A stretch of DNA of 64,000 bases from Flavobacteriales bacterium UBA2669 (GCA_002359215.1 DEMN01000001.1:16593-80592); one strand, 5' to 3'; counted from the first letter of the stretch, positions 5,196-44,874 are shown. Notes: a model not told the origin generated them from the letters alone. Numbers and translations: made by a program.

Positions 5196-5242
5196 AAATT
5201 CAAAAAATGATGCCATTATTATATAATTATTCCATCACGAAT

Positions 5243-5292: not shown

Positions 5293-5374
5293 AGTAAGAT
5301 AAATGAATCTTTTCTTTGAAATTAACATTTTTTAATTTACGTTTGGAGCCTTTTGTTTATAAATATAAGATAAC

Positions 5375-5875: not shown

Positions 5876-5898
5876 ATTAACATTAAACAACCGGCAAA

Positions 5899-6353: not shown

Positions 6354-9300
6354 ATGAAAATAAAAGGCGTATTTGTATGTATGTTAAGTTTACTACCATT
6401 TTTTGGAGTAACCCAAAATGCAGTTGAGTGGATTAATTTAGTGAACCTTACTTTAACAGGAGATACGTTAGAGAAAACATCAGGAACGGTAGGTTGGAAT
6501 GCACATGCGAATTCAACTAATATTTTGGTTGGAGATGGATGGGTTAAATATAATGTAGCTAGTCTTGGTACACAAAGGCTTTTTGGATTTTCCCAAAAAG
6601 GAGTAACTATCAATACAGATGCAGAAATTATTTATGGTTTTTATGTTAGTGGTACTGATTTATATTCTCGGGAATCCGGTAGTCAAACATATTTAAATAC
6701 TACCTATGACATCGGAGATGAGTTGGTTATTGAGCGGATTGGAGATACTGTTTACTATAAGAAAGACAGTGTTGTTTTGCGACAAATAACCGTTGATGGG
6801 ACTTTACAACTAAATGCAGCAGCAGTTTTTAGAAATCAAGGTACAAAACTGGAGTCGGTAGTTGCTTCATTTGACTCGACAGAGCCATTAAACCTTACAG
6901 CAACGTTAAGTCATGTTTTTCAAACGCCTCAATCAGGTGCAATAGATATTACTCCAAGTGGTGGAATTGTACCTTATAGTTATTCTTGGACACCTGGAGG
7001 AGATACAACAGAAGACCTTAATAATCTTGATCCGGGAGTTTATACAGTAGTGGTTACAGATTCCAATTTAAATACATATGAAAAATCTTTTACTATAGGT
7101 TATGGAGTGGAATGGATAGATATGATAGGAACCGACACAACAGGAACTACTGTGCAAAAGACTTCAACTGCAGGAGGCTGGATTACCGGTGCAGCATCTA
7201 GAAATATTTTAAAATCTATAGAAGATGGATGGGTTGAATATAAAGTACAAGACAGTAATGAGACAAAAGTATTTGGATTATCTCCATATCCTAATACATC
7301 AGCAACATTGAACACAGTAGAATATGGATATCAAATTAGAGCTGATGGTTATGTGTACATTTATGAGTTAGGAGTTCCGGTGCTACAAACTATGCAATAC
7401 ACCATTGGAGATGTTTTAAAAATTGAACGATCGGGAAGTTTTATCAATTATTATCAAAATGAGATACTTCAAAGACAAATTGCTACAGATAGTACTCTGC
7501 AATTAATAGTCGATGTTTCATTTAATACCAATGGAAGTAAATTTCAAGACGTGGTGACCTCTTTTCCTGCACCACCAAGTTTAACGTTTTCGGTTACACA
7601 AGCAGCATTGGATCATTCAGTATTAGGAACAATTGATTTAACGGTAACAAGTGGAACTCCTCCTTATACCTATAATTGGCAACCAACAGGGATGACAACA
7701 CAAGATTTGAGCGGTTTAAACCCCAATACGTATTCAGTGGTTGTAACAGATGCTACAGGGAGAGAAACTGAAGGAGCTATAGGAGTAGGGTATGATGTAG
7801 CATGGGAGGAATTGACAAATGTAACAGTAACCGGAAATACAATAGAAAAAACCTCCGGGTCATCAGGTTGGAATGCCGGAGCAGCATCTGTTGATGTATT
7901 GCCAAGTTCAACCGATGGTTGGATTGAATACGATATAGTACCATCAAACACTTATAGAATAATAGGACTATCGAAATTACCTAGTAATCAATCAGCTACA
8001 TTGACGGGAATAAACTATGGATTTCAAATAAGATTGGATGGTCAAATTATTATTTATGAATTAGGAACAGGAGTACATACTATTCCTAAATATTATGAAG
8101 GAGATGTGCTTCGAATAGAACGAAAATCAAATCAACTCAATTACCTTATTAATCATAGTATTGTAAGATCTATTGTTGTTGATTCTTTAGACTCACTGTA
8201 TACAGATATTAGCTTTCATACGGTAGGTGCTAAGTTTGAAAATGTACGTTATTTATTTTCAGCACCTTCTCTTGCGGAGTTTACGGTTGATTATGTTGCT
8301 ACAAGCGAATCCAGTGATAGTTTAGGGTCTATTCAACTATCACCAACAGGAGGTATTCCACCATTTTACTATTTTTGGGATGATGGAGATCAATCTCAAA
8401 ATAGGTATAATTTAGAGTCAGGATTATATAGTGTTACTGTTGTCGATTCTTTACTAGATTCAGTTAATTTAGTGATACCCGTTGATGTGGAAATTTTAGT
8501 CACAGATTCGCAAGGCGTAACCTTTGATAATCATTATGTAGAAAAAACAGCAGCTGATGGATGGGGCAATGGAAAAATGAGTTTTTCAAATGTAGCAAAA
8601 GGAGATGGGTCTGTAAGAGTTGAAATAGTAAATGATAACAAAGAATGGGCTTTTGGATACAGATTATCAGCTAACGCTCAGGCGGTTTATTATAATGATT
8701 TAGATTATGGATTTTATATTAATAGTGGAGATACCTTATATACATGGGAGAAGTCAACCAGTACACTAATCAATGTAGGGACTGTCACAGCAGGTGATAT
8801 TTTAAGTATAGAACGAGAGGGAGGGTTAGTTACATTTAAAAAAAATGATGTTTTTATTTCAGAAGTAAGCGTTAATGTTGCTAATGAATACAGAATAGAT
8901 TTCTCTCTTTTCTCTACTCAAACAAGGGCAAGGGTTATTATCATAAGGTTTCCTTTTTGGTTAACAGCTAGTGCAAACATTACAAATAGCAATTGTAATA
9001 TCCCTAATACAACTACAGGAGAAATTGATTTGACTGTTATTGGAGGTACTCCTCCTTACTCTTACAGTTGGACTGGTCCAAACAACTTTACAGCTTCAAC
9101 ACAAGACATATTTAATCTTGAAGCAGGAGCTTATACAGTTACAATTACAGATAGCCGCCCCACCCCTAACTCCATCATTAGAACCTATTATGTAGGTCAT
9201 AAAGTAGAATGGACAAACATAGTTGCATCAACTGTTAATGATAATACCTTAATAAGAAATACATCCACTTACGATGAACCTAGTGGGGCATCTTCGGTTA

Positions 9301-12300
9301 ATATACTCAAAAGCTCAGCTGATGGATGGGCAGCATTTGAAGTAAATAGTAATCAAGATGAGAATGAAATTTTTGGTTTATCAGAAACAGATGTAAACCA
9401 AAACTTAAACTCTGTTGATTATGGCATTTATTTATTTAAATCAACCAATTTAAACCCTATTTTTCCTTCACAGCTCGTTACAGTATGGGAAAATGGAGTT
9501 GATATGGGGGTATTAGATCCTATTTCCGGAGAAAAATATTTCACAACGTATAAAACAGGAGATAAATTTAAAGTTGAAAAAACAGGCAATACGATTACTT
9601 ACCTGAAAAATGAGGTGGTATTTTATACCTCCACAGTTCCTGTTCCATCAGCTACTGATTTAATAGTAGATGCAGCAATGTATGGAGTAAACGGGACAAC
9701 TATTTTAGAAGCAGTTACTTCATTTAGATGTGTTTCCTTATGTGATATTGAACTATCATTTCAAGGGGATGATTTTGAAATAACACCGTTGACCGGTGGA
9801 GGCTTTTTATATAAATCATATGTGCATTGTCCTGATGATATTATACCTATTACCGTTCAAGCCCCGGTAAATTATAATATTTCAGATTATACGCTTTATT
9901 GGAGTCAAGTATCTCCAACAGTAGGAACATTTTTTAATTGTCAAAACCCTACTGAATGTTCAGAAATAATACTATATCCTAATGCTAATGGGACCTATAT
10001 TTTTGAAGTAAGTATTACTACCTATTTAGAGGGTGATATCAACTACTGTTCGTTAAACAAAGTTGAATTGTTTGTAGAATGTTCAGCAGAACCCCCATCT
10101 GATGATGAAGAAATAATAGGATGTATTTTTGGAAATTTTGGAGCAGGCGTTTATGTTAGTTCGGGTACAAATTTAAATGTGTATTGTAATTTACTTAATG
10201 AATTAGGAGGGATTAATACAACAACTAACTTAATAGAAAAAGGGGAGTTTAGAAATAAAGGAGATATAAATGTTTCAAAAGAATGGATTAACAATGCAGG
10301 CAATTTATTTCTAACACAAGAAGGAATAACAGATTTAATTGGTGATAACCAAAAAATGAAAGGGAATTCCAGTACCCACTTTAATAAATTAGAACTTGGA
10401 GAAGATGCACAAAGTCTGACAGGAATTAAATCAATAATGCTGGATCAATATGCTCATGATGGGTTAGATTTAGTCAATAGTGAATTAGCTACTGAAGGTA
10501 ATGTATTTTATGTGAAAAATAATGATGCCGGTTCTATTGAAAGGGATAATGGATTTGTTAGTACGGATGAACCTACAGGATATTTATCAAGAGAAATTGC
10601 CAGCTCAAGTGGAGCTTATCTGTTCCCTATGGGCTCTAAGCTGGGTAATTTGAGATATAGACCTATTGAAGTTGATATAAAAGATGTAGATGATGAAATT
10701 AAAGTTAATTTTCAAAATCATAATCCCTTCGATGATGGTTTAACAGCTTTATCTCCGGCAGTGTTAAGTGTAAATGATAAATATTATCATAAAATTAATG
10801 CTACTAACTTATCTCAAACAGCAACAGAATTTATTATTAAATATTACTTTCTTCTTAATGATGGTAGTTTTCAGAGCATCGCTCATTGGGAACCAACTAA
10901 TCCTTTTTGGGAAAATACCCCAGGTCAAAATTCTAATTTAACTCCGGCTACATCTGGGGCTTTTCAGGGGTTGGTTTATGCTGAATCCGATGGAACTCAT
11001 AGTTTTGATGAGGAACCTTATGTGTTGTCTCAAGCAGGTTTTGTTGTAGGGACACCTAATTGGCCATCAACAGGTGGTGGAAATACAGGAATATCTGGAC
11101 CTAATGGACCTGGATCAAGTAATGGATGTGTAGCTAATTTTACTTATACAACTTATAATAATAATCAGGTAGTATTATCTAGTACTTCAGTAGTTTCAAG
11201 TACTGCAATTTATTCATGGGATTTAGGAGATGGAAATTTTGCAACAGGAGCAGTTTATACACATACTTATGCGGCAAGTGGAACATACACGGTAGTGTTG
11301 ACTATAACTGATGGTGCAAATACATGTTTTTCTCCGGCTACTTTTACGGTTATTGATGGAGGAACAAGTGTAGGTTCTCCCGGTAATTCTAACCCAGGGA
11401 GTTCAAATGGTTGTACAGCAAGTTTTTCTTCAACAAATTACGATCCTCAAGTAACATTTACAAATACTGCCACAGGACTATCTGCACCTGTTTTTACTTG
11501 GGATTTTGGAGATGGAAATTCCTCAACAGGAGCAGCTACAGCTGCACATACCTATGCTAATAATGGAACATTTACCGTTACTTTAACTATAGTAGATGGT
11601 GCAAATACATGTACTGCTACGCAACAAGTAATCATAACGAACAATTCAGGGATAGTAATAGAAATTAATCCTGCTAATCCTGCTAATCCATGTGGAAGCG
11701 GTGGGAATATAGGTACTCCAACGGGTACAGGACCCGGAAGTGGCTCGAATGGAAATAACACATCTACTCCAAATACTGTTCCTTGCGATTATGTTATGAC
11801 CATAACCACTAATGATGATTGCAGGTTAAATGGAGAGATTTATTTTACTATTGATGATAATCTATCACTAGTGAATATTGAATTTTCTTTTGATGGAGGG
11901 ACAACGAAACTTCCACTTTCAGAAGAAGTTTATCACGAAATACCCGGTGTACCCGGATTTGTTTTAACAGGAACTCCTGAAGAAATTTATGCTCAATGTA
12001 TCAATTCAGTAAAAGTGGAAATGGGAGGAGTTATACCTAATAATGATTTTGTGTTGGATTTAAGTACTAGCGAAGATATTGTTATAAGCACACCTGCAGA
12101 TATTCAAAGTTTTAAAATTTTTGAAATAGGAAATCCAACGGCTGTTTATACGGATGCTAATACTCCTTCAACACCTTCTAACGGACAAGTTATAATACTT
12201 TCTAGTGCATTAAGTGCACTTACACCAAATTCGTACAGATTTGAAATGGAAATAACGATTGGAGCTAGTTCAGAAATAATAGAAGGACATTTTATAGTAA

Positions 12301-12305
12301 AATAA
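6354..12305 (+). CDS. Giant (1983 aa) secreted repeat protein with SprB repeats and two PKD domains; adhesin-like
   Basis: Signal peptide. SprB-type motifs ([40 protein letters not shown]). PKD motifs ([11 protein letters not shown]...[11 protein letters not shown] and [11 protein letters not shown]...[11 protein letters not shown] at ~11.1-11.65 kb). The last ~60 aa loosely resemble a T9SS type-A CTD. Confidence 0.85.
6423..9730 (+). repeat. Five tandem coding modules of ~690-710 nt inside the giant gene
   Basis: Module starts VEWINL (6423), VEWIDM (~7106), VAWEEL (~7798), ILVTDSQG (~8500) and VEWTNI (~9205). Each is a ~170-aa unit (GW.AGAAS...DGW.EY...FGLS...YG...YE.G...GD.L.IER.G...Y) followed by a SprB repeat. 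Confidence 0.7.
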
Positions 12306-12850
12306 TGATGAAATACACAGCAAACATAGCGTTAGTTTTAAGCATAGCAATTATAGTATTTATAGGTATAGATAAGCTCATCAATAAACAACATAAAATT
12401 AGAATTGTCCAAATGGAACAATTGGTTTATGAATACCAAGGAATGAAAGATGCTACAGAAACATATAATGCTAAGATGGACAAATGGAGCAATCAAACAG
12501 ATTCCTTAGAAAATATGCTTAAAAATTTGTACGAAGAAATACAATTAGACTCAATTGGTGGGAATAAGGAAAAATTGTTACAAGATCAACACCGATTTTA
12601 TCTGTTACAACGCTCTTATTATGAGTTTAAAGAAAACGTAGCACAAAAAGCTCAGGAAGAAGATCAAAAAATGACCATAGGGGTGATTAATCAATTAAAA
12701 GAACACATAAAAGAATATGCAAAACAAGAGAAACATAATATTATTATAGCCAATACACAATTACAAAACGTAGGCTATGTGGACGATGCGTTGGATATTA
12801 CAAAAGAGTTATTAGAATATGCAAATAGGAAATATCAAGGAGGTGAATAA
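12305..12850 (+). CDS. OmpH/Skp-like periplasmic chaperone-like protein
   Basis: N-terminal anchor or signal, a long coiled coil, and the C-terminal pattern NIIIANTQLQNVGYVDDALDITKELLEYAN typical of OmpH. The start abuts the stop of the giant gene. Confidence 0.65.
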   Translation: MMKYTANIALVLSIAIIVFIGIDKLINKQHKIRIVQMEQLVYEYQGMKDATETYNAKMDKWSNQTDSLENMLKNLYEEIQLDSIGGNKEKLLQDQHRFYLLQRSYYEFKENVAQKAQEEDQKMTIGVINQLKEHIKEYAKQEKHNIIIANTQLQNVGYVDDALDITKELLEYANRKYQGGE

Positions 12851-13478
12851 GTTCATTTACATAGCATTTTTATTTCTTGCAATTACACTTAGTAGTTGTA
12901 AGCATTCTATTGATGATTTTAATACCTATATGGAGTATTTAGCAGATAAAGACAATGGACTAGTAAAAGAAAAGTCAATAGGTGGAATTCAACTAAAGGT
13001 GAAATATTTACCTAATGATTATTTAGTGTATAATGAGGTTAAGAATAATAAACAGCTAACTGAGAATTTGCTAGATAGTTTGAAACTAACCTATGCCAAC
13101 TCCATAACATTTATGATGGTTCTTGGCCCAGATAAAAATGAGTCTTTTGATATTACACGAGTTGGAGTAGCTAATTATGAAGAATTTGCTCAGCGAATAG
13201 AAGAAATGAATTTTAATATGATGCAACATGTAAAACTTCAGGTTGGTAATGAAGCGTATAGTCCTGAATTGTATCAAATGGAAAGTACTTACGGATTAGA
13301 GCAAAGCAGGAAATTTTTGTTTGTTTTTAAAGCAAAGGATGAAAAATCAAACACGATATTAAAGGACGATTTCCAATTTGTTTATGCTGACGAATTATTT
13401 AATACAGGTATAAATAAGTTCCAATTTAAGCATTCAGATGTTAATGCCATCCCAACATTTAATTTTAGTTACAAATAA
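12819..13478 (+). CDS. Lipoprotein, function unknown
   Basis: Lipobox LAITLSSC. Overlaps the preceding gene. An alternative GTG start at 12843 follows AAGGAGG. Confidence 0.6.
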   Translation: MQIGNIKEVNKFIYIAFLFLAITLSSCKHSIDDFNTYMEYLADKDNGLVKEKSIGGIQLKVKYLPNDYLVYNEVKNNKQLTENLLDSLKLTYANSITFMMVLGPDKNESFDITRVGVANYEEFAQRIEEMNFNMMQHVKLQVGNEAYSPELYQMESTYGLEQSRKFLFVFKAKDEKSNTILKDDFQFVYADELFNTGINKFQFKHSDVNAIPTFNFSYK

Positions 13479-13499
13479 GAGATAGAAATAGATAAAAAT

Positions 13500-19322: not shown

Positions 19323-19324
19323 AA

Positions 19325-20038: not shown

Positions 20039-20089
20039 CCTTTGCGTCTTTGCGGTAAAAAATAAACAATACATACAAAATAGATACAA

Positions 20090-24667: not shown

Positions 24668-24804
24668 CTAAAATAAATGAATAATAATAAGATTGAAAAT
24701 AAGTAAAATAAATTATGATTGCATTGCCTCTTAGCGAGAAAAGAGTGTGCGAGTTCAACGAAGTTAAAAAAACTATAGTAATAAATATTAAAAACCATAA
24801 AAAG

Positions 24805-25422
24805 ATGAATATTAAAAATATAATTGTATTGGCTGTTTTTATTGCCACTTCATTAACCACATTGGCACAAAATACCGAAGGAGTTTCTATTGCTCCCAAT
24901 GTAAATCCTCCCGATCCATCGGCAATGTTGGATGTACAATCCAGTGATAAAGGTTTGTTAATTCCAAGAGTTGAGTTAACAAGCACAACGGATCAAACCA
25001 CCATTGCATCTCCGGCAACCAGTTTACTGGTGTATAATACCAATACGGTATCAGATGTTAGTCCTAATTTTTATTATTGGAATGGAACAGCATGGGTTTT
25101 ATTAGGCTCAACAAATAAAGTTCCTAAGGTTACTTATAGTCAAATGCAAAGCATGATAGCTAATTTAACACTAGATGATTTAGGATTGTCAGTTTTTGTT
25201 ACAGACAGAGGTTATATTAGTAATGTTTTACAAGATAATGATATAATTACACATTGTACAGCAGAAGTTTATGGGCTATGGTATTTGTCAAGCATTGAAT
25301 GTACGAATGGAGATATTCTTTTTTGGAGAAGAATTTCAACAAATCAAGGAACAATAGATCCAAGTACATCATGTGCAACTCAATCCGGTAACCCAACTCT
25401 TTGTGATCCGGTTGTGGAATAA
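24805..25422 (+). CDS. Small secreted protein, paralog A
   Basis: The track ORF starts at 24715, but the signal peptide MNIKNIIVLAVFIATSLTTLAQ begins at the ATG at 24805. The N-terminal ~100 aa are near-identical to those of 25446..26027. Confidence 0.7.
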   Translation: MNIKNIIVLAVFIATSLTTLAQNTEGVSIAPNVNPPDPSAMLDVQSSDKGLLIPRVELTSTTDQTTIASPATSLLVYNTNTVSDVSPNFYYWNGTAWVLLGSTNKVPKVTYSQMQSMIANLTLDDLGLSVFVTDRGYISNVLQDNDIITHCTAEVYGLWYLSSIECTNGDILFWRRISTNQGTIDPSTSCATQSGNPTLCDPVVE

Positions 25423-25445
25423 AATAATAACTAACTTAATTTATT

Positions 25446-26027
25446 ATGAAATTAAAAACATTTTTATTAACTGCTTTTCTTACTACTGTATTAATAAGCA
25501 AAGCTCAAACAACTAATTCCGAAGGAGTTTCCATTGCCCCTAATGTAACACCTCCTGATCCATCAGCGATGTTAGATGTACAAGCCAGCGATAAAGGCTT
25601 GTTAATTCCAAGAGTTGAGCTAACAGGTACCACCGATGTAACCACTATTGTATCCCCGGCAACCAGTTTATTGGTGTATAATACCAGTACGGTATCAGAT
25701 GTTGTTCCGGGTTATTATTATTGGGAAACTAAATGGGTTCCTATAGGAAGAGGTGATGAAAAAATGCCTAAAATAACCTTTGCTCAAATGTTGGCAATGG
25801 AAACTAATTTAACAGATGATGATAGAGGTTTATTTGTTTTTGTTACTAATGAACAAGATGTCACCTTTTGTTCAGGAGTACTGACAACCACAAAAAACGT
25901 GTATGGAGTATGGTATTTTTATGATACAGACTCTTGTTACGGAAAATGGATTAGATTAATAGACGGATTACTATCTCAACCATGCCCGGAAGATGTTCAG
26001 GTTTGCGGAAATCCTCCTCAATTTTAA
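25446..26027 (+). CDS. Small secreted protein, paralog B
   Basis: Signal peptide, then EGVSIAPNVTPPDPSAMLDVQASDKGLLIPRVELTGTTD...SLLVYNT...YYW shared with paralog A. Confidence 0.75.
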   Translation: MKLKTFLLTAFLTTVLISKAQTTNSEGVSIAPNVTPPDPSAMLDVQASDKGLLIPRVELTGTTDVTTIVSPATSLLVYNTSTVSDVVPGYYYWETKWVPIGRGDEKMPKITFAQMLAMETNLTDDDRGLFVFVTNEQDVTFCSGVLTTTKNVYGVWYFYDTDSCYGKWIRLIDGLLSQPCPEDVQVCGNPPQF

Positions 26028-26151
26028 ATAATAAAAATAAACAAGTATGGAAAGAACAATTCCATATGACAAATAAAAAAAAAACGAGCGAAGTGAGTTC
26101 ATGAGTACATGATTAAAACAATAAAAATTAACGAATAATAAATAACTACAT

Positions 26152-29100
26152 ATGAAAATCAAAGTTGCTATATTACTGTTGTTTGGATTTTTTCTAACAA
26201 TTTTTTCTGTCAAAAGTCAAACGATAGGAGATCCAATGTGTTCACAAACATCTTCTTCAGATTGTTGTATTCAATATAACTTTGATTTTAACTATACCCA
26301 ACAAGTAATAGCTCCTACACCGCCTGCAACACTATCTAATCAAGTAAAAGTTAATTTTACCTTAACCTCTGTTTTAGGAGTTACTACAACAGGTAGTAGA
26401 TTTACGGGGATTTGTAGTGAACATGAAGTAGCAAGTGTAAGTTGGGACTTTGATGATGATGAACTTGTTGATGTAGTATCGGATGCTCCTGCACATATAT
26501 ACACATTCTCCTCTGCATGTGCCTCAGAAGTACATAAAGTAGTCGTATGTGTACTAATGAGTAATGGAGCTACATGCAGATTTGAGCAATGGATAGTATT
26601 AAACAACCCTAACGTAGTAGCTTCTCATACCATAACACCTACTATAAATGCTTGCGGACAAGTTAACTTTTCATACACAGGAACAACACTTACCAATCCA
26701 AAATGGACTTTTGGAGATGGAACATTTGATAATTCTGCACAACAAACCGTTAGTCATACTTACCCAACTAACGGAACCTATACCGTTACACTAACAAACG
26801 ATGAAATGGCACCTTGTGCAATAGCAACAACAGTTACCATATCAGACAAACCAACCGCTAGTTTTAGTTATACCATTCCCGATGTTTGTAATGTTACTTC
26901 AGGTATAAATGTTACCATTAATAATTATAACCCAAGCCTTTATACCTACTTATGGAAAGTAAATAATGTATCAGTACCTGCAACAGGTGTTACTACCAAC
27001 ATAATATCACCACTCGTGTCAGGACAAAACAATACCATCAAACTTATTGTTCAAGATGCATCAGGTTGCCAATCAACAACCACTAAAAACATAAAAATTG
27101 GAGCAGTAGAAGCAGATTTTAATACCCCTTTAGAGTATTGCTTAGGAGATTTTCTGAATGTTACAGGCATTCAATCGGGAGGAACAACCTACGATTGGAA
27201 AATTGATCACACCACCACTTCAACTACAGTAAATTTAACAAATGCAGGAATGTTTCCTTCCTATCAATTTACCACCACAGGAATATACGATATAAGCCTA
27301 ACCGTTACTACTACTTATCCTAATCCTAGTAATCCGTCTAGTCCGTTAACTTGTACAGACCTTTTCACCGAAACAGTAGAAGTATTTGAACCTGTTGATG
27401 CCAGTTTTAGTATTGCCTCAGGTACCAATTGTGGAGAAATAGCACTAACATTAACTAACCCTACCACCACCACGGCATATACCATTAATTATGGCGATGG
27501 TACTATAGAAACAGGCACAGACATTACTTCTGCACCAAGCAATCATTTAGAACATATTTATACCAGTAATGGCGTTCATACCGTAACCATTACCCTAACC
27601 AATGGAACGTGTACCAATACAAAAACAAATAGCGTATCCATTAACGACCAAGCCACACTAACCATTGTAGCAAGTAATATCAATTTATGTCCCGGAAGCA
27701 CCGTAACATTAAATGCTGTAATAGCTAATGTAGCCATAGGTTCAGGAGGAATCACTTATGAGTGGAAAGATGTTACAGATGTTAATCCTGCAAATCATAT
27801 TACTTTACCCGGAACAACAGCTCAAATAACCGTTACTGCCGGAGGCACTTACCAAGTAACTGTTACCACAGGAAGTAACATTTGTTTCAGTAACAACGAT
27901 AATGATGCTACTATAGTAATTAACGAATTAGAAGCCCCAACAGCAACGTTTGATGTACAAAACATAACAGCTACAAGTTGCGGACTTTCTACAGGGGCAG
28001 TAATTTTAGATGTTACCGCTAATTTAGCAGCAGTAGGCTACACCGTTAATGGTGGTGCAGTACAAAATACACTTCAAACAACAATAAATAACTTACCCGC
28101 AGGGCCTAATTACATCACCATAGCCAATGCCCAAGACCCTACCTGTACAGGAACTGTTTTGGTAAACATTCCGGATAATAGCCCGGAGGTAGAAGTGGTA
28201 AGTACCGATGCTACTTGTAGCAGCACGGGTAGTATTACTGTTAATGGCGTACCAGGAGGATACACCACCACTGTATATGCCGCAAATGATTATCCAACAA
28301 CACCTTTATTTACAGGTACAAGTGGAAACGTACCTGCCGGAAATTATGTAGTGGAAGTAACCGAAAACTCACCGGGAAGCTGTGTAGTTACCCAAAATGT
28401 AACCGTATTAGGCGGAACATTTAACCTAAGCTTAGTAAATCCTAACTTAGGTATTTGCTCTGGCGGAAGTGTAGCAGCTGCATTAGATAATCCTCCTTCA
28501 GGAGCAGTCATTACTTGGCAACAAAAAGATATTAATGGCAATTACAATAATATTGGAGGAACAGCATCAACGCAAAATATTACACAACCGGGAGAATACT
28601 CTGTAACAGTAGAAGATGGCTCTTGTACAGAAATACTCTATTTTACCGTACAACAATTTAACCCCATCACCATTAATTTTGAAATCATTCAACCACTATG
28701 TCCGGGAGATCCTGCACAAATTAACGCAATAGTAGCCGGAGGAAGCGGCAATTATACTTATAGTTGGAGCAACTCCGCCTCTACAGATGACAATATCTCT
28801 ATACCAACAGCACCGGGCGGAGCAGTTACCCTTACCGTAAATGATGCAAACACTGCCTTAGGTTGTGGTCCCGTTACTTCTCCCGATATATCCACCAACC
28901 TCACTTTTCCAGACCCTATCGTATTATGTACCTCAGGAATTACCTCAACACCGGCTTATGTTGGAACAAACACTACACTAGCACCATCAGCTACTTACGA
29001 AAATAACATTTCCATTACGGGGTGTCAGTTAGAATTATGTGCCACAGGAGGAACAGCTCCCTTAAATTACGAATGGTTCCTAGAAGGACAACCCTCCACA

Positions 29101-32100
29101 GAAACCAGAATTGTTAGTTTTACAGTAAATGGAGTTACAGGAGCGTTAGAATATAACGACCCCGACCCAAGTTCATCTACTTTTGGAAATGTGCTTGCGG
29201 CAGAAAAACCAACAGGTGTTACCATTCCAGGTTATACAACAGGAACGGTAGCGTTTAATGTAAACGACCCAAATATTACCGTTACACCAACTCCAACTCC
29301 CGGATTTTACATCTACCCTTATTGGTTGTATGATGGTACGAACATTTTCCCTGCCTTACAAACCGATGGCGTTACTCCTTTTACCGTTACCGTTCAGGTA
29401 ACCGTAACCAACGACATTATGGTGCACAACCATACCGGCTCAACAACAAGTACTGCCGATTTTGCCGAATATGCCGATCCTAATGGTGCTTCAGTTATCT
29501 ACACCTTGGTAATTACAGATGCCAACGGATGTAGCACTTCCTTCCCGGGAGTAGAAATTACCATTCCTCCCGTTCCTGATTTTCCAGAATTTAGCTTTGT
29601 ATGGGCTAAACCGCTTCCATCAACTGGTGGAGAAGAACCCGAAGAAGTGGACATCAATATCAAAGACAACATGGCAGAAGCCGCCAACGAAATGATGTCT
29701 AGTGCCATGGCTTGTTTGCAAAGCCAAACACAAGGAATGATTACTGCTTTTGAGGACAATTGTTTCGACCTCAATACCTTTAGAGATTCTACCAACATCA
29801 GTTATGAGGTAAACGAACACCACTACACCCTCTATTATTACGATAGAGCAGGGCAGTTAACCAAAACAGTGCCGCCTCAGGGAGTTAAATTCTTAGATGA
29901 TGGTTCTATTTCATCCAACGAAATTCAGGCAATTATTGATTACAGAGCGTCTAATCCGCTTAGTTTACCTGCCGTAAGTAAATTTGTTCCCGACCATACT
30001 ATGGAAACCAAATACCAACACAACAGTTTAGGGCAGCTTATCAGCCAAAGTACGCCCGATGGGGGAACCACCAACTTTATTTATGACGGACTAAACCGCC
30101 TGCGTTTTTCACAAAATGAGCAACAAAATACAGACGGGGTATTCAGTTACACCAAATACGATGAACTCGGCAGAATTATAGAAGTGGGTGAAAGCGATGC
30201 CATAGGATTAAACTTTGCAGACCCTACACTAGCAGCTAATGTAACCACCTATGCCAATGATGTCAACTATCCTGATAATACGCTGGCAGGAATCACTAAT
30301 ACGGAAATAACCAAAACACACTATACCACCCCTGCACAAGTAAATTATTATGGGTTACCACAACGCTACCTGCAAAACAGAGTAAGCTTTGTGTTTAACG
30401 ATGAAGATGGTGACCTAAACACCACCAACGATCAATACCATACTTATTTTAGTTACGATACACATGGAAATGTAGAATGGCTTATACAAGAAGATGCCGA
30501 AATAGGCAAAAACTACATTGCCTATGAATATGATTTAATAAGTGGAAACGTAATAAAAGTACGTTACAATGAAAACCGTAGCGATAAATTTTTCCATAAA
30601 TACGAATACGATGCAGAAAACCGCTTAACCCATGTGTTTACCTCTGTTGATAACCAATTGTGGGATAATGATGCTCATTATGAATACTACGCTCACGGAC
30701 CATTAAAACGAAATACCATAGGCGAAGACCATGTACAAGGTTTAGATTACATCTATACCATACACGGATGGTTAAAATCCATTAATAGCCCTAACATAAG
30801 TAATAACACCGACCCGGGAAATGATGGCGATTTAGTAACTGCCATAAATGCTTGGCAACAAACCAACAAAGTAGCTGAAGATTATTTTGGTATGAGTCTG
30901 GGCTATTATAATGGAGATTATCGTAATGTTAACAATTTCCACTATAACAGTACTACAGGAAGTTCTCCTTATCAAAATTTATATGCATCAACTAATAACG
31001 ATGCAGCAGACCTTTACAACGGAAACATTAGCCATTGGGTACACAGCCAATTAAGTACTATAGGAGGAATAAAAGACCCGAGTGTTAAACCAAGAGCAAG
31101 CGTTTACAATTATGATGTATTAAACCGTATTAAGCAAGCTACCAATTTTGAACAAATAGGAGGAGATTTACTAGGTAATTATGCATTTTCAACCTATACC
31201 GGAGCCAATGGTGCAGATGCCTACAAAACCAATTATACCTACGATGCTAACGGTAATCTCCTCAACCTAGACCGATACAATGCATTAGGAATACTCATGG
31301 ATGAATTAGGTTATACCTACGATAATGGATTAGCAGGAGTAGCTCTAAACAGCAACCAACTTACTTCTGTAACAGACAACAGCACCAATACAGAAGATGG
31401 TAGAGGCGATTTAGAAGCCATCCATACTTATACCTATGATGGCATAGGAAACCTAACCATAGAAACCGCTCAAGAACGCATGGATTTTGGTACCGGATAT
31501 CAATTGTTTGATGTAGCTACTAACATTAACTGGACGGTTTATGGAAAAGTAAAACAAGTTACCAAAACCATTAGCACCAACAGCGGAGCAAACGTTTATC
31601 AAGTAGAAAAAATAGACTTTGAGTATGATGCTTCCGGCAACAGAATTAAAAAAACCGCTAATAAGAAAATTGATGCAACAGGAAATCTATCAGGAATAGA
31701 TGCCAACCCCGAAACAGCCAGTTTCTTAGTGAACGAAGTTACCACCACCTACTACGTGCGAGATGCTCAAGGAAACACCTTGGCAGTATATGAAAAAACA
31801 GCAGTAGAAAATGGCAGTAACTTCGATGTTACCCTACAACTAAAAGAACAACCTATTTATGGCTCCGACCGTTTAGGACAACGCACAGCAAACAAAGTAT
31901 TAGCAGCCTCCCTAAATGTAAGCGGAAGCTCAGGCAACATTACCTTTCCCCCACTAGGTAGCGGAATACAAAAAAAATCCGAATACCAAAACTGGATTAC
32001 CAGCAGCAACAAAAATGCGTTACTAAATCTTACCGACCAACTTTGCCAACAAAAAGTAATACACTTAGAATATGATAATGGTACAGCAGAATACGCTACA

Positions 32101-34491
32101 CCAACCACACCGGACATACCTGCTACCACCAACTTTTTGGGAATAGCCAAAAATGGAGTAGCCATTGCCGAAAATACCGATGGCGAATTACAATTTTATG
32201 TAGTACTTGCCGAAAAATACTTGGGCAACAAAGATGCGTGCTTAATTTACGATGCCACAGGCAAACTAATGAAAAATACAGAGTTGATTAGTAATATCGA
32301 CATCAACAGCAAGCCTATTGTGATTAATTTAGCAACAAATAAATATGCCGTAGTTACCCTAAATGCCAACAAGCAACCCATGTACCATATTATAGACATG
32401 GATGCACAAGGCTATGGAGCAGTAAACAATGCAGGCGAAGTGGATGCTACCCAGGTAAACGTAGCCATGACTACCACCACTACAGCACAATATGGTTTAC
32501 ACTTTACCGCTTACGAAGACCACGTTAACAACAAAAAAATAGTTTACAGTACCCGCTATACCCCTAATGTGGCATTGCCCGATCAAGGCAGTACAGAAAT
32601 TGTAGCCTTTGAATTTATAAACAACACCACCCAATTGCAACAGCATGTGTTGTACCAGATTAACGGATGTGGCAATACCGAACAAGGCGAACTACAGATT
32701 TCTCCCGAAGGAAACAAACTCTTGTGGTACCAGCACGATAAATACGTAACCGGCTTTAGCCACCGTGTGTTCGATGTGTATAGCATAGCCCTGCACCCCG
32801 ATAAAATAAGCACCACAGGCGTAGTGGACATCTTAGACCATACCATGGTAAACAACTACGGAGGCAACTATGGCGAAGGAAGAGTAGAATACGATGCCGA
32901 CAACCAAACCATGTACCTTAGCCAACGAGGCATTTATTTAGACGGAGCAAGCGGAAATGAAAGCGAACGCAACCTTTGGAAATACTCTCCGCTAAATACT
33001 ACCACCCTCAACCCCTTAAACCCTACCAGTGTGTATTTATTTAGCGAAATACGCAGAGGAGTAAACGGAAAACTCTATATGCCCAATATGGATGCAGCTG
33101 CAGATGCCATACACAGCTATGATGGAAGTAGCATGAGTAACATTCCTACTAATAGTGCGTATAATTCGTATGTCTTTGCCTCCGCCTTACCTACCCAGGT
33201 GTATAAACTATTTGGAGAAGAAGCAGTAGCAAGTGCAGGCAGAGAAATAGGGAAAAAACAATATTTCTTAAATGACCATTTAAATTCAGTAAGAGTAGTG
33301 ATTACCGATGAAAAACATCTTAATAATGTAAATAGTAATGACCAAATTGATGCAGGAGACTTTTTTAGTCCTTTTGTAGTCTCATTTTCAGATACTTATC
33401 CTTTTGGAATGAGCTTAAGAAACTTTAATCCGAATTTGGCGAGATACTCTTTTCAGGGACAGGAAAAAGAGAAAAATGCTGTTGTTGAAGGGTTTTCTTT
33501 TAAATATAGAATACACGATGCAAGGATAGGAAGATTTTTAAGTGTTGATCCTTTATCAGAGTCTTACCCTTTTAATAGTACTTATGCATTTAGTCAAAAT
33601 AGAGTAATTGATGGGATAGAATTAGAAGGCTTAGAATTTTTGGATGCTAAAAAGTATGGAGTTAATTTCTTTTCTATGCGTCCATTTTTGGATAATCCAA
33701 ATGCAAATGACGTTATAGTTCCAATAGAAGTGATGAATGCATTAGTTACACGTAAGGGAGCACCAATCATTGAACAAGGAAGTGCAGTTGAAATGAGACC
33801 AATTACTCATTGGTTAGCTCCTAAACCTGGTTCACAAACAAAGCCTAATACAAAATCTGCAAAAGTGAAGTCAGCAAAACAAATTCCTATTGTAACAAAT
33901 GTAGTAAATTCATCATCTGCAAAAATTGGAATGAGAATGGGGGCAATTTTGGAAGTTTTTAACTTATTCGTTCCTTATATAGATTTAATTGTAAATTCTG
34001 ATTATTATGCTGATAGAGAAAAAGCAATAGCAGGAATTATTGCTTTAAATAAAGCTACAACATTAGTTTCTGCAGCTAAAAAAAATGGATACATCCCTAT
34101 GTCTCTAACACAAAGTGATGTTTTTATGGCAGATGTAGCAAATTATTTATCTGATGGGAGAATTCCTAAACCTAATGAAAATAATGTTGTAATAACAAAA
34201 GAATATTCAAAATTAGTTACAGATTGGGCACAAATGCTATTAGTAAATGAAGAAAAAGTATTGTCAGGAAGTCTTAATTTAGGGGAAGATTCTTCGGAAG
34301 AAATGATTATTCCTCTTAGTATGGGAACTATTGATAGAAATCTTGGCACAATAATGATAGTAGTGCCTGTAGAAGTGGCAGAACAAGATTTATCTCCAGA
34401 AGTAAAAGAAGCTAAAAAAGCAGAAAAAGCATTTAATGAATCAGGGGAATCAGCTCCAAAAGTAACAGAAAAAGTAAAAAAAAATAATTAA
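26152..34491 (+). CDS. 2779-aa RHS/YD-repeat polymorphic toxin with an N-terminal PKD/SprB-repeat stalk
   Basis: Signal peptide. PKD and SprB-type repeats at ~26.6-29.6 kb. More than 10 YD motifs from 29833 (YYYDRAGQ, YDGLNRL, YDELGRI, YDTHGNV, YDAENRL, YDANGNL, YDGIGNL, YDASGNR). RHS core ...PFGMSLRNF...YRIHDARIGRFLSVDPLSESYPFNSTYAFSQNRVIDGIELEGLE ends at ~33636. A ~285-aa unassigned C-terminal domain follows. Confidence 0.9.
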   Translation: MKIKVAILLLFGFFLTIFSVKSQTIGDPMCSQTSSSDCCIQYNFDFNYTQQVIAPTPPATLSNQVKVNFTLTSVLGVTTTGSRFTGICSEHEVASVSWDFDDDELVDVVSDAPAHIYTFSSACASEVHKVVVCVLMSNGATCRFEQWIVLNNPNVVASHTITPTINACGQVNFSYTGTTLTNPKWTFGDGTFDNSAQQTVSHTYPTNGTYTVTLTNDEMAPCAIATTVTISDKPTASFSYTIPDVCNVTSGINVTINNYNPSLYTYLWKVNNVSVPATGVTTNIISPLVSGQNNTIKLIVQDASGCQSTTTKNIKIGAVEADFNTPLEYCLGDFLNVTGIQSGGTTYDWKIDHTTTSTTVNLTNAGMFPSYQFTTTGIYDISLTVTTTYPNPSNPSSPLTCTDLFTETVEVFEPVDASFSIASGTNCGEIALTLTNPTTTTAYTINYGDGTIETGTDITSAPSNHLEHIYTSNGVHTVTITLTNGTCTNTKTNSVSINDQATLTIVASNINLCPGSTVTLNAVIANVAIGSGGITYEWKDVTDVNPANHITLPGTTAQITVTAGGTYQVTVTTGSNICFSNNDNDATIVINELEAPTATFDVQNITATSCGLSTGAVILDVTANLAAVGYTVNGGAVQNTLQTTINNLPAGPNYITIANAQDPTCTGTVLVNIPDNSPEVEVVSTDATCSSTGSITVNGVPGGYTTTVYAANDYPTTPLFTGTSGNVPAGNYVVEVTENSPGSCVVTQNVTVLGGTFNLSLVNPNLGICSGGSVAAALDNPPSGAVITWQQKDINGNYNNIGGTASTQNITQPGEYSVTVEDGSCTEILYFTVQQFNPITINFEIIQPLCPGDPAQINAIVAGGSGNYTYSWSNSASTDDNISIPTAPGGAVTLTVNDANTALGCGPVTSPDISTNLTFPDPIVLCTSGITSTPAYVGTNTTLAPSATYENNISITGCQLELCATGGTAPLNYEWFLEGQPSTETRIVSFTVNGVTGALEYNDPDPSSSTFGNVLAAEKPTGVTIPGYTTGTVAFNVNDPNITVTPTPTPGFYIYPYWLYDGTNIFPALQTDGVTPFTVTVQVTVTNDIMVHNHTGSTTSTADFAEYADPNGASVIYTLVITDANGCSTSFPGVEITIPPVPDFPEFSFVWAKPLPSTGGEEPEEVDINIKDNMAEAANEMMSSAMACLQSQTQGMITAFEDNCFDLNTFRDSTNISYEVNEHHYTLYYYDRAGQLTKTVPPQGVKFLDDGSISSNEIQAIIDYRASNPLSLPAVSKFVPDHTMETKYQHNSLGQLISQSTPDGGTTNFIYDGLNRLRFSQNEQQNTDGVFSYTKYDELGRIIEVGESDAIGLNFADPTLAANVTTYANDVNYPDNTLAGITNTEITKTHYTTPAQVNYYGLPQRYLQNRVSFVFNDEDGDLNTTNDQYHTYFSYDTHGNVEWLIQEDAEIGKNYIAYEYDLISGNVIKVRYNENRSDKFFHKYEYDAENRLTHVFTSVDNQLWDNDAHYEYYAHGPLKRNTIGEDHVQGLDYIYTIHGWLKSINSPNISNNTDPGNDGDLVTAINAWQQTNKVAEDYFGMSLGYYNGDYRNVNNFHYNSTTGSSPYQNLYASTNNDAADLYNGNISHWVHSQLSTIGGIKDPSVKPRASVYNYDVLNRIKQATNFEQIGGDLLGNYAFSTYTGANGADAYKTNYTYDANGNLLNLDRYNALGILMDELGYTYDNGLAGVALNSNQLTSVTDNSTNTEDGRGDLEAIHTYTYDGIGNLTIETAQERMDFGTGYQLFDVATNINWTVYGKVKQVTKTISTNSGANVYQVEKIDFEYDASGNRIKKTANKKIDATGNLSGIDANPETASFLVNEVTTTYYVRDAQGNTLAVYEKTAVENGSNFDVTLQLKEQPIYGSDRLGQRTANKVLAASLNVSGSSGNITFPPLGSGIQKKSEYQNWITSSNKNALLNLTDQLCQQKVIHLEYDNGTAEYATPTTPDIPATTNFLGIAKNGVAIAENTDGELQFYVVLAEKYLGNKDACLIYDATGKLMKNTELISNIDINSKPIVINLATNKYAVVTLNANKQPMYHIIDMDAQGYGAVNNAGEVDATQVNVAMTTTTTAQYGLHFTAYEDHVNNKKIVYSTRYTPNVALPDQGSTEIVAFEFINNTTQLQQHVLYQINGCGNTEQGELQISPEGNKLLWYQHDKYVTGFSHRVFDVYSIALHPDKISTTGVVDILDHTMVNNYGGNYGEGRVEYDADNQTMYLSQRGIYLDGASGNESERNLWKYSPLNTTTLNPLNPTSVYLFSEIRRGVNGKLYMPNMDAAADAIHSYDGSSMSNIPTNSAYNSYVFASALPTQVYKLFGEEAVASAGREIGKKQYFLNDHLNSVRVVITDEKHLNNVNSNDQIDAGDFFSPFVVSFSDTYPFGMSLRNFNPNLARYSFQGQEKEKNAVVEGFSFKYRIHDARIGRFLSVDPLSESYPFNSTYAFSQNRVIDGIELEGLEFLDAKKYGVNFFSMRPFLDNPNANDVIVPIEVMNALVTRKGAPIIEQGSAVEMRPITHWLAPKPGSQTKPNTKSAKVKSAKQIPIVTNVVNSSSAKIGMRMGAILEVFNLFVPYIDLIVNSDYYADREKAIAGIIALNKATTLVSAAKKNGYIPMSLTQSDVFMADVANYLSDGRIPKPNENNVVITKEYSKLVTDWAQMLLVNEEKVLSGSLNLGEDSSEEMIIPLSMGTIDRNLGTIMIVVPVEVAEQDLSPEVKEAKKAEKAFNESGESAPKVTEKVKKNN

Positions 34492-34497
34492 AGTTTT

Positions 34498-35763
34498 ATG
34501 AAAAGCGTTGTATTGATTTTCGGTCTTTTATTTTTTACAGGTTGTTTTAATAATGAAGAAGAACTAGGTTCTTCGGTTATAAAAGATAATAAAGAAAAAC
34601 TAAAATTAACAGTACCAGAAAAAATTGAAATTAATAAAGAAGGTATTGAAATTTCAGATAGTCTGTTCTTGTATTTTTATATGGAAGGGAACATAGAAGA
34701 ACTAGTGCAAAATAAGTATAAAATTGATTCGGATTTGAAATTAGGCATTTCTTCAATCGCTTTTTTAGAACAAGGTGATTATCAAAAGGCATTAAGTTTA
34801 ATTCCTCATTATAGTCAAGTTGAGTTTGATTGGGATGATGGAGAAAAAATATATCCTCATCAATTTACAAGAGAGTTTGGATTTTACGAACTACTAGCTC
34901 TTTATCGTTATGCCGTTCATATAGATGAGATTGAAGAAAATATTGTTTCACATATGCAAATTAGTTCAAGTTTTACTGACACCTTTGCCAATAATATACT
35001 TATAGGTACAGAATATGTTTTAACCACTACTTATGAATTAGAATATGAACATTTTGCGAAAAACAAAAAGTTTAATTTAGATAGCTTACTTGTTTATTAT
35101 CCAAATTTTCACAGATTAAAATTAGCAAAAGCACATTATTTTTTTGTAACTAATCAAATAGATGAATATTTATTTGAATTAAAAAAGATATATGAATTAG
35201 GATATTTTAGAAGAGATATGTTAAAAAGAATAATTAGTGAGTATTCATGGGGAGAAAAGCCAAATTTAGATTCGGCAGCTGTTTATGTAGCTAAATTTGA
35301 ATTAGAATTTCCTAATGATTGTGATAATTCAATAAATAATTATTATTTAGAATCTAAGAAGTATCAAGAAATGGAGAAAGCTTGTAAAAAATGTTTTCAA
35401 GATAGTTTATTATGGAGAGATAAAATAATTGCAAAGGCACAACTTTGCAGACTCTATTTAAATCAAAAAAAGATAGAAAATGTGAAAGCACTAATCTATC
35501 ATTTTCATGAAAATGATAGTGGATATAGACGAACAGAATTACGAAAGTGGTTGTGGACTGAATATTTTTTTATGGAATTAGAATTAAATTTTTTACAAAA
35601 AAAATATAGTACTGTAAACAAAATGATGAATAAAGGGTTTGGTGAGTTAGCAATGCCTTTTACTACAGAGGAAAAAAGAGAAGTGATAAAAAGATATTAT
35701 GCATATTATATAAGAAAAGATTTAATAAATTTTGAGCATTTCTATCGAGATAATTTTGAGTAA
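34498..35763 (+). CDS. Candidate cognate immunity protein (lipoprotein, helical repeats)
   Basis: Starts 6 nt after the RHS stop. Lipobox LLFFTGC. AT-rich like the toxin tip. No motif recognised. Confidence 0.55.
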   Translation: MKSVVLIFGLLFFTGCFNNEEELGSSVIKDNKEKLKLTVPEKIEINKEGIEISDSLFLYFYMEGNIEELVQNKYKIDSDLKLGISSIAFLEQGDYQKALSLIPHYSQVEFDWDDGEKIYPHQFTREFGFYELLALYRYAVHIDEIEENIVSHMQISSSFTDTFANNILIGTEYVLTTTYELEYEHFAKNKKFNLDSLLVYYPNFHRLKLAKAHYFFVTNQIDEYLFELKKIYELGYFRRDMLKRIISEYSWGEKPNLDSAAVYVAKFELEFPNDCDNSINNYYLESKKYQEMEKACKKCFQDSLLWRDKIIAKAQLCRLYLNQKKIENVKALIYHFHENDSGYRRTELRKWLWTEYFFMELELNFLQKKYSTVNKMMNKGFGELAMPFTTEEKREVIKRYYAYYIRKDLINFEHFYRDNFE

Positions 35764-44873: not shown

Positions 44874-44874
44874 A

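Follow-up and report, generated by a model that had tools for sequence, protein, structure and literature searches.

How do the giant RHS toxins of the Bacteroidota leave the cells that produce them? In marine and environmental members of this phylum, RHS toxins that begin with DUF6443 count among the giant proteins most commonly encoded, and we know of no account of their release: they bear Sec signals, have no T9SS tag (T9SS, type IX secretion system), and no T6SS partner (T6SS, type VI secretion system). The question is raised in a peculiar form by a stretch of 64,000 nucleotides (nt) from Flavobacteriales bacterium UBA2669 (GCA_002359215.1 DEMN01000001.1:16593-80592), which is referred to below as the window. 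At positions 6354-35763 it carries ten open reading frames (ORFs), all on the + strand and labelled A, B, C, D, E, F, G1, G2, H, and I, where an RHS toxin (H) and a DUF6443 protein (F) are encoded by separate genes and are preceded by D, an exported giant devoid of a toxin domain. The analysis described here defines B-C-D-E-F as a unit that recurs throughout the phylum, and this module probably assembles or delivers the neighbouring RHS toxins.

The original prediction had described ten co-directional genes with gaps of at most 137 nt. Every ORF was recovered on the + strand at its coordinates (Table 1), and the close packing is real: along A to I, the gaps amount to -1, -32, 21, 2, 51, 47, 23, 124, and 6 nt, with a maximum of 124 nt, while the figure of 137 nt is reached only with an internal Met start of G1. 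Conservation was assessed by all-against-all clustering of the ORFs of 79 loci, each taken with a 10-kb flank, together with those of the window (80 sources; handles of the form L001 denote the compared loci). D is present in all 80 sources, E in 70, F and C in 66 each, and B in 63; contig ends account for many of the missing cases. The order and strand of B-C-D-E-F are identical in all loci compared, which cover every major order of the Bacteroidota, and the median gaps are -4 nt for B-C, 6 nt for C-D, 2.5 nt for D-E, and 15.5 nt for E-F. Around distant relatives of D the same succession is seen, namely OmpH, a protein of ~215 aa, D, a protein of ~250 aa, and a DUF6443 protein of ~1,500 aa. 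The arrangement is far beyond chance; order, strand, and spacing are repeated in dozens of unrelated genomes. The co-conservation of the locus genes, a test named beforehand, was thus borne out for B, C, D, E, and F, which go together in 63-80 of the 80 sources. The conserved unit is B-C-D-E-F, and A, G, and I are lineage-specific additions. G-type genes occur in 18 sources and A-type genes in 12, so that the SprB giant A, initially counted as a part of the system, has to be placed outside the conserved core. A scan for sigma-70 promoters and terminators gave counts not above the shuffle expectation; Bacteroidota promoters are outside its scope, and it is therefore uninformative on co-transcription.

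D, the signature gene of the module, belongs to a large family. More than 2,052 homologues of ~1,900-2,100 aa were found among 90%-identity clusters, without a Pfam domain and all named "hypothetical protein", and the family comprises 1,837 clusters at 50% identity (E<=1e-30). A collection of species-representative genomes contained 301 matching stretches, with two D loci each in six assemblies; in some genomes both loci are complete. The carriers include Flavobacteriaceae (Joostella, Flagellimonas, Maribacter, Aquimarina, Tamlana), Vicingaceae and Crocinitomicaceae, Cytophagales (Fulvivirga, Hymenobacter, Microscilla, Ohtaekwangia, Sporocytophaga), Chitinophagales (Sediminibacterium, Saprospiraceae, Aureispira), Sphingobacteriaceae of the Sphingobacteriales, and Kapaibacterium. 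The D of the window is 96% identical to that of a Vicingaceae metagenome-assembled genome (MAG; L006). No description of the module was found in the literature searched on Rhs, Bacteroidota, T9SS, SpvB, TcB, and cocoon, which returned only work on T6SS, Tc, TANFOR, and the Tc of Amoebophilus, and "DUF6443" is mentioned in no indexed paper; in this sense the system is indeed uncharacterised, as had been proposed.

All ten proteins have a recognisable N-terminal signal peptide, membrane anchor, or lipobox. B is, by its profile match, a bona fide OmpH-family protein, in agreement with the earlier call: it aligns with PF03938 at E=3.7e-15 (56.8 bits against a cut-off of 32.4) over profile positions 1-139 of 141, and the OmpH annotation is also carried by the B orthologues of L001, L002, L003, and L005. 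C had been considered a lipoprotein, and it does possess a lipobox, LSSC, whose Cys is invariant across 27 orthologues. Neither C nor E has a relative in Pfam, NCBIfam, or the PDB, the searches of the PDB with C and with E giving nothing at E<=10 or noise; together with G1, G2, and I, these proteins match no Pfam or NCBIfam family even at permissive thresholds.

The central problem is the nature of D, which had been labelled SpvB/TcB-like. At the sequence level the label fails. Against SpvB (PF03534), D scores 16.2 bits with its N-terminal 200 aa and 13.5 bits with the full protein, the cut-off being 22 (E 6.4e-3), and against DUF6531 it scores 22.3 bits with a cut-off of 24.1 (E 1.7e-4); both matches are confined to aa 59-119. 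Among 24 diverse members of the family, DUF6531 is seen in 22 and SpvB in 9, always below the cut-off (best SpvB E 3.4e-4). The SpvB/DUF6531-type motif comes just after the near-invariant mature N-terminus ALTSGPxSPEFSSFEPV. Neither RHS_repeat nor the propeller families TcdB_toxin_midN/midC gave a Pfam match at E<=0.1 in D or in the 24 members, and the profile searches proposed for SpvB and the mid domains thus ended with a sub-threshold SpvB and no mid-domain match. In the PDB nothing was found at E<=10, either by phmmer or with a profile of 42 sequences. When the D family was aligned by hhalign with SepB (the TcB of pADAP), 42 columns only were paired (D 82-127 with SepB 48-91, P=0.075), which correspond to the short motif GxGY..L.YHS...G.GW, and the comparison with an alignment of H-type RHS proteins was not significant. 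Internal repeats are not detected in the D family by hhalign self-comparison, whereas the RHS/H-family alignment does show repeats, and D contains neither an Rhs core nor a C-terminal toxin. It also has no C-terminal aromatic beta-signal and only 2 Cys in 1940 aa, versus 26 in the C-terminal half of F. At aa 1428-1450 (window 17781-17850), a strictly alternating hydrophobic/polar stretch of ~22 residues is conserved family-wide.

The picture given by predicted structure is different, and here the SpvB/TcB-like label finds support. An AlphaFold2 model of D aa 1-1200 (pLDDT 74, pTM 0.72) gave, in a Foldseek search of the PDB, YenB (4igl_A, 7.6e-5), TcdB2-TccC3 (6h6f_F, 4.7e-4), and the SpvB N-domain (6p0x_A, 5.9e-3) as its sole significant matches, with prob 0.99-1.0 and a query TM-score of only 0.11 at a root-mean-square deviation of 13-15 A; for 6p0x_A the TM-score on the target is 0.35. 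A search of BFVD with the N-terminal model produced no match. The model of aa 741-1940 (pLDDT 81, pTM 0.68) has 41 matches at E<=1e-3, nearly all of them YD shells. They are headed by the mosquito protein SGS1 (9.3e-11), YenB (5.9e-10), and TcdB2-TccC3 (5e-9 to 1e-8) and continue with the B chain of the Yersinia holotoxin, T6SS Rhs cores (to ~1e-4), and teneurins (to 1e-3); for 5kis_A (5.9e-10), 4o9x (1.3e-8), and 4igl_A (2.1e-8) the prob is 1.0 at TM-scores of 0.15-0.20. Thus, D is predicted by modelling to consist of an SpvB-type N-domain and a TcB/RHS-type beta shell. This means the same kind of fold and not a close superposition, a restriction imposed by the low TM-scores (0.11-0.20). In the second model, the alternating stretch at aa 1428-1450 sits in a hairpin with strands of 26-27 residues, and the pore-forming CDTb and iota Ib also appear among the matches (E 5e-5 to 5e-4, prob 0.5-0.9). 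The hairpin, these matches, and the Cys distribution leave room for a membrane-active role of D. The Skp-like chaperone B had prompted the idea that D is a giant SprA-like outer-membrane barrel; it was rejected as the leading reading, both models matching RHS/TcB shells and LptD appearing with a prob of only 0.01.

The connection of the module with RHS toxins is established through F. The assignment of DUF6443 to F is sound (PF20041, 31.8 bits against a cut-off of 27.8, E 1.9e-7), and the same profile is carried by many members of the F family according to precomputed annotation. The description of F as Cys-rich applies to its C-terminal half, with 26 Cys in the last 775 aa at positions conserved in 27 orthologues, and not to the first 750 aa, which contain 3. 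For the C-terminal half no PDB relative was found, phmmer and profile searches of the PDB with F giving nothing at E<=10 or noise, and the F family shows no significant hhalign similarity to SepC. There are 116 homologues of F, and the distant ones are RHS proteins of 2,300-2,650 aa that match the first third of F only. Two architectures are distinguished accordingly. In the fused form, seen in 17 loci, E is followed by one ORF of 2,200-3,100 aa whose residues ~80-790 correspond to F aa 70-750 and residues ~1,400-2,600 to the shell of H. In nine fused proteins, blastp aligned residues ~80-790 with F aa 70-750 at 28-36% identity (E 1e-52 to 1e-86), and the identity between the shell of H (aa 1174-2506) and those of the fused proteins is 31-39% for most and 28% for L048. 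In the stand-alone form, a complete separate F of 1,055-1,888 aa was found in 43 loci. In the window, as in L005, L012, L021, L042, and L077, the stand-alone F is followed 3' by a separate RHS shell protein; in the other loci of this kind the next gene opens with adhesin-type arrays and extends past the 10-kb flank. Wherever the flank reached far enough, an RHS toxin was seen fused or adjacent to the module.

In the window, F and H have no similarity to each other by blastp, and H has no F/DUF6443 region. H itself combines a signal peptide, a PKD/Ig-like array (aa ~1-1140; PKD_4 1.8e-22), and the YD shell, with an Rhs core and then an orphan C-terminal domain behind it. The RHS call is well founded for the repeats (RHS_repeat PF05593, 2.9e-9, 37.5 bits against a cut-off of 22), and the Rhs-associated core TIGR03696 remains just under its cut-off (E=1e-6, 29.1 against 32.5 bits, aa 2416-2493), with the Bacteroidota-type core motif RIGRFLSVDPLSESYPF visible in the context ...SVDPLSESYPF... 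The last 260-280 aa or so have no homologue at E<=1e-3, which fits a hypervariable toxin and is not a proof of one.

The distribution of the two architectures is informative as to what D does. When 63 full-length D proteins were placed in a neighbour-joining tree, all fused-architecture loci fell into a single clade, so D co-diverges with the architecture of the toxin. The separation of pieces that are normally fused, to which the original prediction had drawn attention, is genuine, and split versus fused follows the D phylogeny. A Sediminibacterium MAG has both architectures, with a stand-alone F in L011 and the fused form in L072. Because the fused loci make up one D clade and assemblies with two loci occur, D may be regarded as a cognate partner of an individual toxin and not as a shared channel; by analogy, one D per toxin locus resembles the TcB/TcC pairs.

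On these grounds we infer a delivery function for the module. In the reading that we favour, and to which we give an even chance as a whole, D is a TcB-like per-toxin partner of the F/RHS protein and has the help of a private chaperone and lipoproteins. All proteins of the locus would cross the inner membrane through Sec, and in the periplasm the beta-rich giants D, F, and H would be kept ready for assembly by B. D would then pair 1:1 with the F/RHS protein, like TcB with TcC, and the two might form or cap a shell around the C-terminal toxin released by self-cleavage. This shell would be placed at or close to the outer membrane, where C and E would tether or assemble the complex. The adhesin-like A and the paralogs G1 and G2, with their tail-fibre-like N-domain, could supply lineage-specific targeting.

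The nearest parallel to such a device is the TcB-TcC cocoon (YenB/YenC, TcdB2-TccC3, SepB/SepC). There, a toxin-free protein with an SpvB-type domain and a shell, features predicted for D by modelling, is encoded upstream of an RHS protein with a core and a variable toxin; as in the module, split and fused genes both exist, and partner and toxin co-diverge. Unlike the Tc genes, the module has no TcA, no TcdB_toxin_midN/midC signal, and no significant sequence similarity to its counterparts; it has Sec signals on all proteins, a Skp-like chaperone, a lipoprotein, and a protein of ~250 aa. Its RHS partner possesses a full-size shell of its own, and D, with ~1,950 aa, is without YD repeats. In pADAP a small DUF2514 gene (L084:11824-12354) lies between sepB and sepC, as E lies between D and F, probably by positional coincidence.

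Other known systems share single traits with the module. Toxins exported by the TcdB/TcaC pathway, which occurs in Bacteroidetes, combine a signal peptide, SpvB, an integrin-like propeller, RHS repeats, and the toxin in one polypeptide (Zhang et al. 2012, PMC3482391). In both cases RHS polymorphic toxins are associated with a signal peptide plus an N-terminal element of SpvB type, a predicted one for the module, but in the module the SpvB-like element belongs to a separate, toxin-free, and highly conserved protein; partners of the OmpH, lipoprotein, and DUF6443 kinds are unmentioned in that 2012 survey of polymorphic toxins (PMC3482391). The T6SS Rhs effectors RhsA, Tse5, RhsP, and Tse15 resemble H in the YD shell, the putative Rhs core and C-terminal toxin, and the candidate immunity gene located 3', and their shells match the model of D (E 1e-6 to 1e-4), whereas H has a Sec signal peptide and a PKD array, and no PAAR, VgrG, Hcp, or Tss accompanies it in the scanned ORFs. 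SGS1, the best Foldseek match of D aa 741-1940, and the teneurins (3e-6 to 1e-3) are eukaryotic membrane or surface proteins which, unlike D, have recognisable YD repeats, and no gene context is shared with them. TANFOR toxins are likewise CTD-less Sec-dependent giants of Bacteroidetes (the CTD being the C-terminal domain recognised by the T9SS), encoded beside SprB/PKD proteins, and their route across the outer membrane is not known either; they are not RHS-based and not reported with OmpH (PMC7073777). None of the ten proteins has an NCBIfam match to the TANFOR domain.

Several points weigh against the pairing of D with the toxin in a TcB-TcC manner. The TcB likeness of D comes from AlphaFold models alone, with the low Foldseek TM-scores quoted above, while Pfam, the PDB profile search, and hhalign with SepB and the RHS family fail for D, and internal repeats are lacking. 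H and the fused toxins own a full-length shell of ~1,300 aa, unlike TcC, and may not need D for closure of the cocoon. H of the window is devoid of the F/DUF6443 region, which leaves its docking on D unexplained. Where F stands alone, the flank was in many cases too short to establish that the giant encoded downstream is an RHS protein. No outer-membrane channel or TcA-like translocator was identified at the locus.

The export route was approached through the known secretion signals and machines. Within their C-terminal 100-120 aa, the proteins A, D, F, G1, G2, and H gave no match at E<=10 to a T9SS CTD of type A (Por_Secre_tail/TIGR04183) or type B (CHU_C/TIGR04131). The test works in this genome, since a secreted neighbour of 521 aa (window 381-1946) scores as type B (CHU_C 3e-10, TIGR04131 2.9e-7), and the absence of a CTD from the large effector-like proteins, noted at the outset, is thereby confirmed. 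The same is true of the absence of T6SS genes, as no PAAR, VgrG, Hcp, Tss, or extracellular contractile injection system (eCIS) family was found by Pfam among the ~50 window ORFs scanned. TcA-type domains (VRP1, neuraminidase-like, TcA_TcB_BD) were found neither in the ten proteins nor among the genes called at five related loci, and TcA families were likewise missing from the window ORFs scanned, and no T9SS component gene was present in the window or in the locus flanks scanned. Nothing in the sequence explains how the outer membrane is crossed and the target entered. Microscilla marina encodes, ~4.5 kb upstream of the module, a protein of 977 aa that weakly matches eCIS_core (toxin-type; L002:2502-5435). 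In four loci, genes for a T2SSF platform protein (1.3e-43), two N_methyl pseudopilin-like proteins, a MORN-repeat protein, and proteins of ~181 and ~444 aa stand directly upstream of B-F (Table 1), and this cluster may be a linked type II/type IV-pilus-like component. It is not present in the 6 kb upstream of the module in the window, and the window genes at 37106-40294, the sizes of which are like those of the cluster, have no similarity to any compared locus.

A bolder view, to which we attach a distinctly smaller but still appreciable likelihood, is that B-C-D-E constitutes an export/delivery apparatus specific to Bacteroidota. In it the TcB-like D would perform the roles played elsewhere by TcA or the T6SS, dock DUF6443, and breach the outer membrane of the producer or the membrane of the target by means of the amphipathic hairpin.

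It is rather unlikely that D together with C, E, and B makes up a new outer-membrane export apparatus for DUF6443-tagged proteins, with the F region as the recognition domain. Such an apparatus would agree with the Sec signals on all parts and the lack of T9SS CTDs, with the private Skp-like chaperone and lipoprotein that go with D, helpers typical for large outer-membrane proteins, and with D itself, which is nearly Cys-free, bears its conserved amphipathic stretch of ~22 residues in a very long predicted hairpin, and has CDTb and iota Ib among its Foldseek matches. However, the best fold matches of D are soluble RHS/TcB shells, LptD-type barrels reaching only the negligible prob already given, and the C-terminal aromatic beta-signal is missing. 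Moreover, one D per toxin locus, co-diverging with the architecture, is unlike a shared secretion machine, and H of the window lacks the supposed recognition region.

It is improbable as well that the giants, although lacking a canonical CTD, exit via the resident T9SS or in outer-membrane vesicles, as has been proposed for TANFOR toxins; B-E would then be chaperones or adaptors and D a surface co-factor. The T9SS is in use in this genome, as witnessed by the type B CTD protein at 381-1946, the D family is restricted to the T9SS-bearing Bacteroidota lineage, A has SprB and PKD repeats like T9SS-dependent adhesins, and the TANFOR toxins offer a precedent for Sec-signalled CTD-less proteins beside SprB proteins (PMC7073777). 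Against this stand the absence of any CTD-like match in the six proteins even at E<=10 and of T9SS component genes from the window and the locus flanks; nor would the need of each toxin for its own conserved partner of ~1,950 aa be accounted for.

We consider it quite improbable that B-F build a surface or envelope structure unrelated to delivery, from which RHS toxins have borrowed the N-terminal domain of F as an anchor. Stand-alone F is commoner than the fused form (43 complete versus 17), D has no toxin or Rhs core, and the flanking giants are adhesin-like, but every flank of sufficient length showed an RHS shell, either fused or adjacent, the only structural relatives of D are toxin-encapsulating shells, and the end of the locus is variable and low in GC, as is typical of toxin-immunity cassettes.

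That the locus is a diverged but ordinary insecticidal-type Tc (ABC) locus is hardly credible: a TcB-like fold is indeed encoded 5' of a TcC-like RHS protein, and canonical Tc homologues exist in the Bacteroidota symbiont Amoebophilus (PMC8831229), but neither a TcA-like product nor a domain of the VRP1, neuraminidase-like, or TcA_TcB_BD type was found among the ten proteins, the D family has no TcdB mid domains, the SepB-D alignment is limited to one short motif, and the proteins all bear Sec signals, in contrast to Tc subunits, which lysis sets free (PMC10847048). Hence, given the absence of TcA and of propeller domains, the failed profile tests, and the Sec signals, the module is not a member of the Tc (ABC) family and probably works partly like the BC sub-complex. 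Of the initial idea of a Tc-like multi-component machine there remains the resemblance of D to TcB in AlphaFold/Foldseek comparisons, while the expected TcA and a propeller match are not there.

The other genes of the block are more variable. The PKD and SprB repeats of A, reported earlier, are confirmed by Pfam (PKD_4 7.6e-23, SprB 4e-20), and a signal peptide is visible. With A as a query, tblastn found matches in 27 of 82 loci, just a region of ~320 aa being shared widely: by blastp, aa 1253-1575 are 33% identical to a 1158-aa protein of L001 (1e-46) and 31% identical to a 1523-aa protein of L005 (4e-29). Adhesin-like giants with SprB, PKD, LRR, Ig, DUF11, and CBM96 domains flank the modules. 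G1 and G2 are paralogs, as had been recognised, with 56% identity over 183 aa (2e-59), and G1 is 53% identical to aa 27-99 of a 412-aa protein of L001 that carries PTL_trimer and Peptidase_S74 and has, at its C-terminus, a weak match to the assembly domain of the L-shaped tail fibre of phage T5. I has the lipobox FFTGC and begins 6 nt 3' of H; it belongs to no family, has no orthologue among the other loci compared, and is a candidate immunity lipoprotein by virtue of its position. No orphan rhs fragments were found in the window. The GC content is 0.39-0.43 in the RHS shell region, ~0.35 in the remaining module, and 0.27-0.29 over 34-40 kb, and a GC mosaic with a low-GC tail is typical of toxin and immunity cassettes.

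Table 1. Coordinates of the ten genes, of regions within them, and of upstream genes at related loci (positions refer to the window unless a locus is named)
Feature	Position	Strand	Description
A	6354..12305	+	1983 aa; exported adhesin-like giant; jelly-roll/SprB modules, 2 PKD domains; accessory
A region, aa 1253-1575	10110..11078	+	shared with otherwise different upstream giants elsewhere
B	12305..12850	+	181 aa; OmpH/Skp-like periplasmic chaperone; N-terminal membrane anchor/signal peptide; core
C	12819..13478	+	219 aa; lipoprotein, lipobox LSSC; core
D	13500..19322	+	1940 aa; Sec-exported giant without toxin domain; module signature gene
D, aa 59-127	13674..13880	+	SpvB/DUF6531-type N-terminal motif, sub-cut-off
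D, aa 741-1940	15720..19319	+	modelled RHS/TcB-like shell, C-terminal beta-sandwich, last YD-like hairpin
E	19325..20038	+	237 aa; exported, fast-evolving; conserved Cys right behind signal peptide; core
F	20090..24667	+	1525 aa; exported DUF6443 protein; core
F, aa 70-750	20297..22339	+	homologous to N-terminal part of fused DUF6443-RHS toxins
DUF6443 in F, aa 351-493	21140-21568	+	PF20041 profile
F, aa 751-1525	22340..24664	+	Cys-rich C-terminal half, specific to stand-alone F
G1	24715..25422	+	235 aa; small secreted; N-terminal domain resembles start of tail-fibre-like proteins
G2	25446..26027	+	193 aa; G1 paralog
H	26152..34491	+	2779 aa; RHS polymorphic toxin
H YD shell, aa 1174-2506	29671-33669	+	RHS shell region
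H orphan C-terminal domain, aa ~2520-2779	33709-34488	+	no homologue at E<=1e-3
I	34498..35763	+	421 aa; lipoprotein; immunity candidate from position only
T2SSF/pseudopilin/MORN cluster	L001:1-4871, L003:2158-6292, L011:2-3010, L080:5752-9053		Sphingobacteriaceae, Ohtaekwangia, Sediminibacterium, Hymenobacter
T2SSF alone	L046:517-1722	-	opposite strand to module

Directly upstream of A, at 4824-6306, three genes code for a 123-aa receiver-only response regulator, a 166-aa LytTR-domain protein, and a 135-aa Bflower_2 protein (2.7e-14). L006 has this trio too, and in L005, L009, and L027 response-regulator genes are found upstream; these genes may regulate the module. Downstream of I, low-GC (0.27) genes of 145, 343, 208, 341, 150, and 177 aa follow on the same strand (36594-40892), with weak bPH/DUF6232 and TnsA-like N-terminal hints and no similarity to the compared loci, and could be further immunity or orphan genes. 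Farther on, small ORFs on the - strand (42127-47625) with M15/VanY peptidase (2.4e-12), CHAP/NlpC-P60 (1.9e-8), and weak PG_binding_1 and SH3_3 matches suggest a cluster of cell-wall hydrolases, perhaps with a phage or effector connection. An AbiEi (3.9e-28)/AbiEii (4.9e-6) type IV toxin-antitoxin pair is encoded at 54615-56466. On the - strand, a protein of 1009 aa (56692-59721) that combines a calcineurin-like phosphoesterase (7.7e-18) with novel STAND NTPase 4 (9.1e-8) looks defence-related, and one of 311 aa (60975-61910) with a weak Zot-like P-loop match (1.1e-4) may be a filamentous-phage remnant.

The comparison turns a single odd locus into a defined and testable unit of five co-inherited genes, three of which have no Pfam family, with ~1,800 diverse D clusters at 50% identity. 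Cultured carriers are at hand in Joostella atrarenae, Flagellimonas aurea, Aquimarina megaterium, Taishania pollutisoli, Hymenobacter lucidus, Ohtaekwangia kribbensis, and Microscilla marina. If D is the partner or exporter of the toxins, the deployment of a large class of interbacterial weapons would be explained, new family definitions for D, C, and E would be justified, and the principle of the Tc BC cocoon would be extended to a phylum, and to a Sec-dependent, TcA-free setting, in which it has not been described. Should the export/delivery apparatus prove to be the true reading, the module would represent a new pathway of protein secretion or contact-dependent killing, with thousands of uncharacterised loci.

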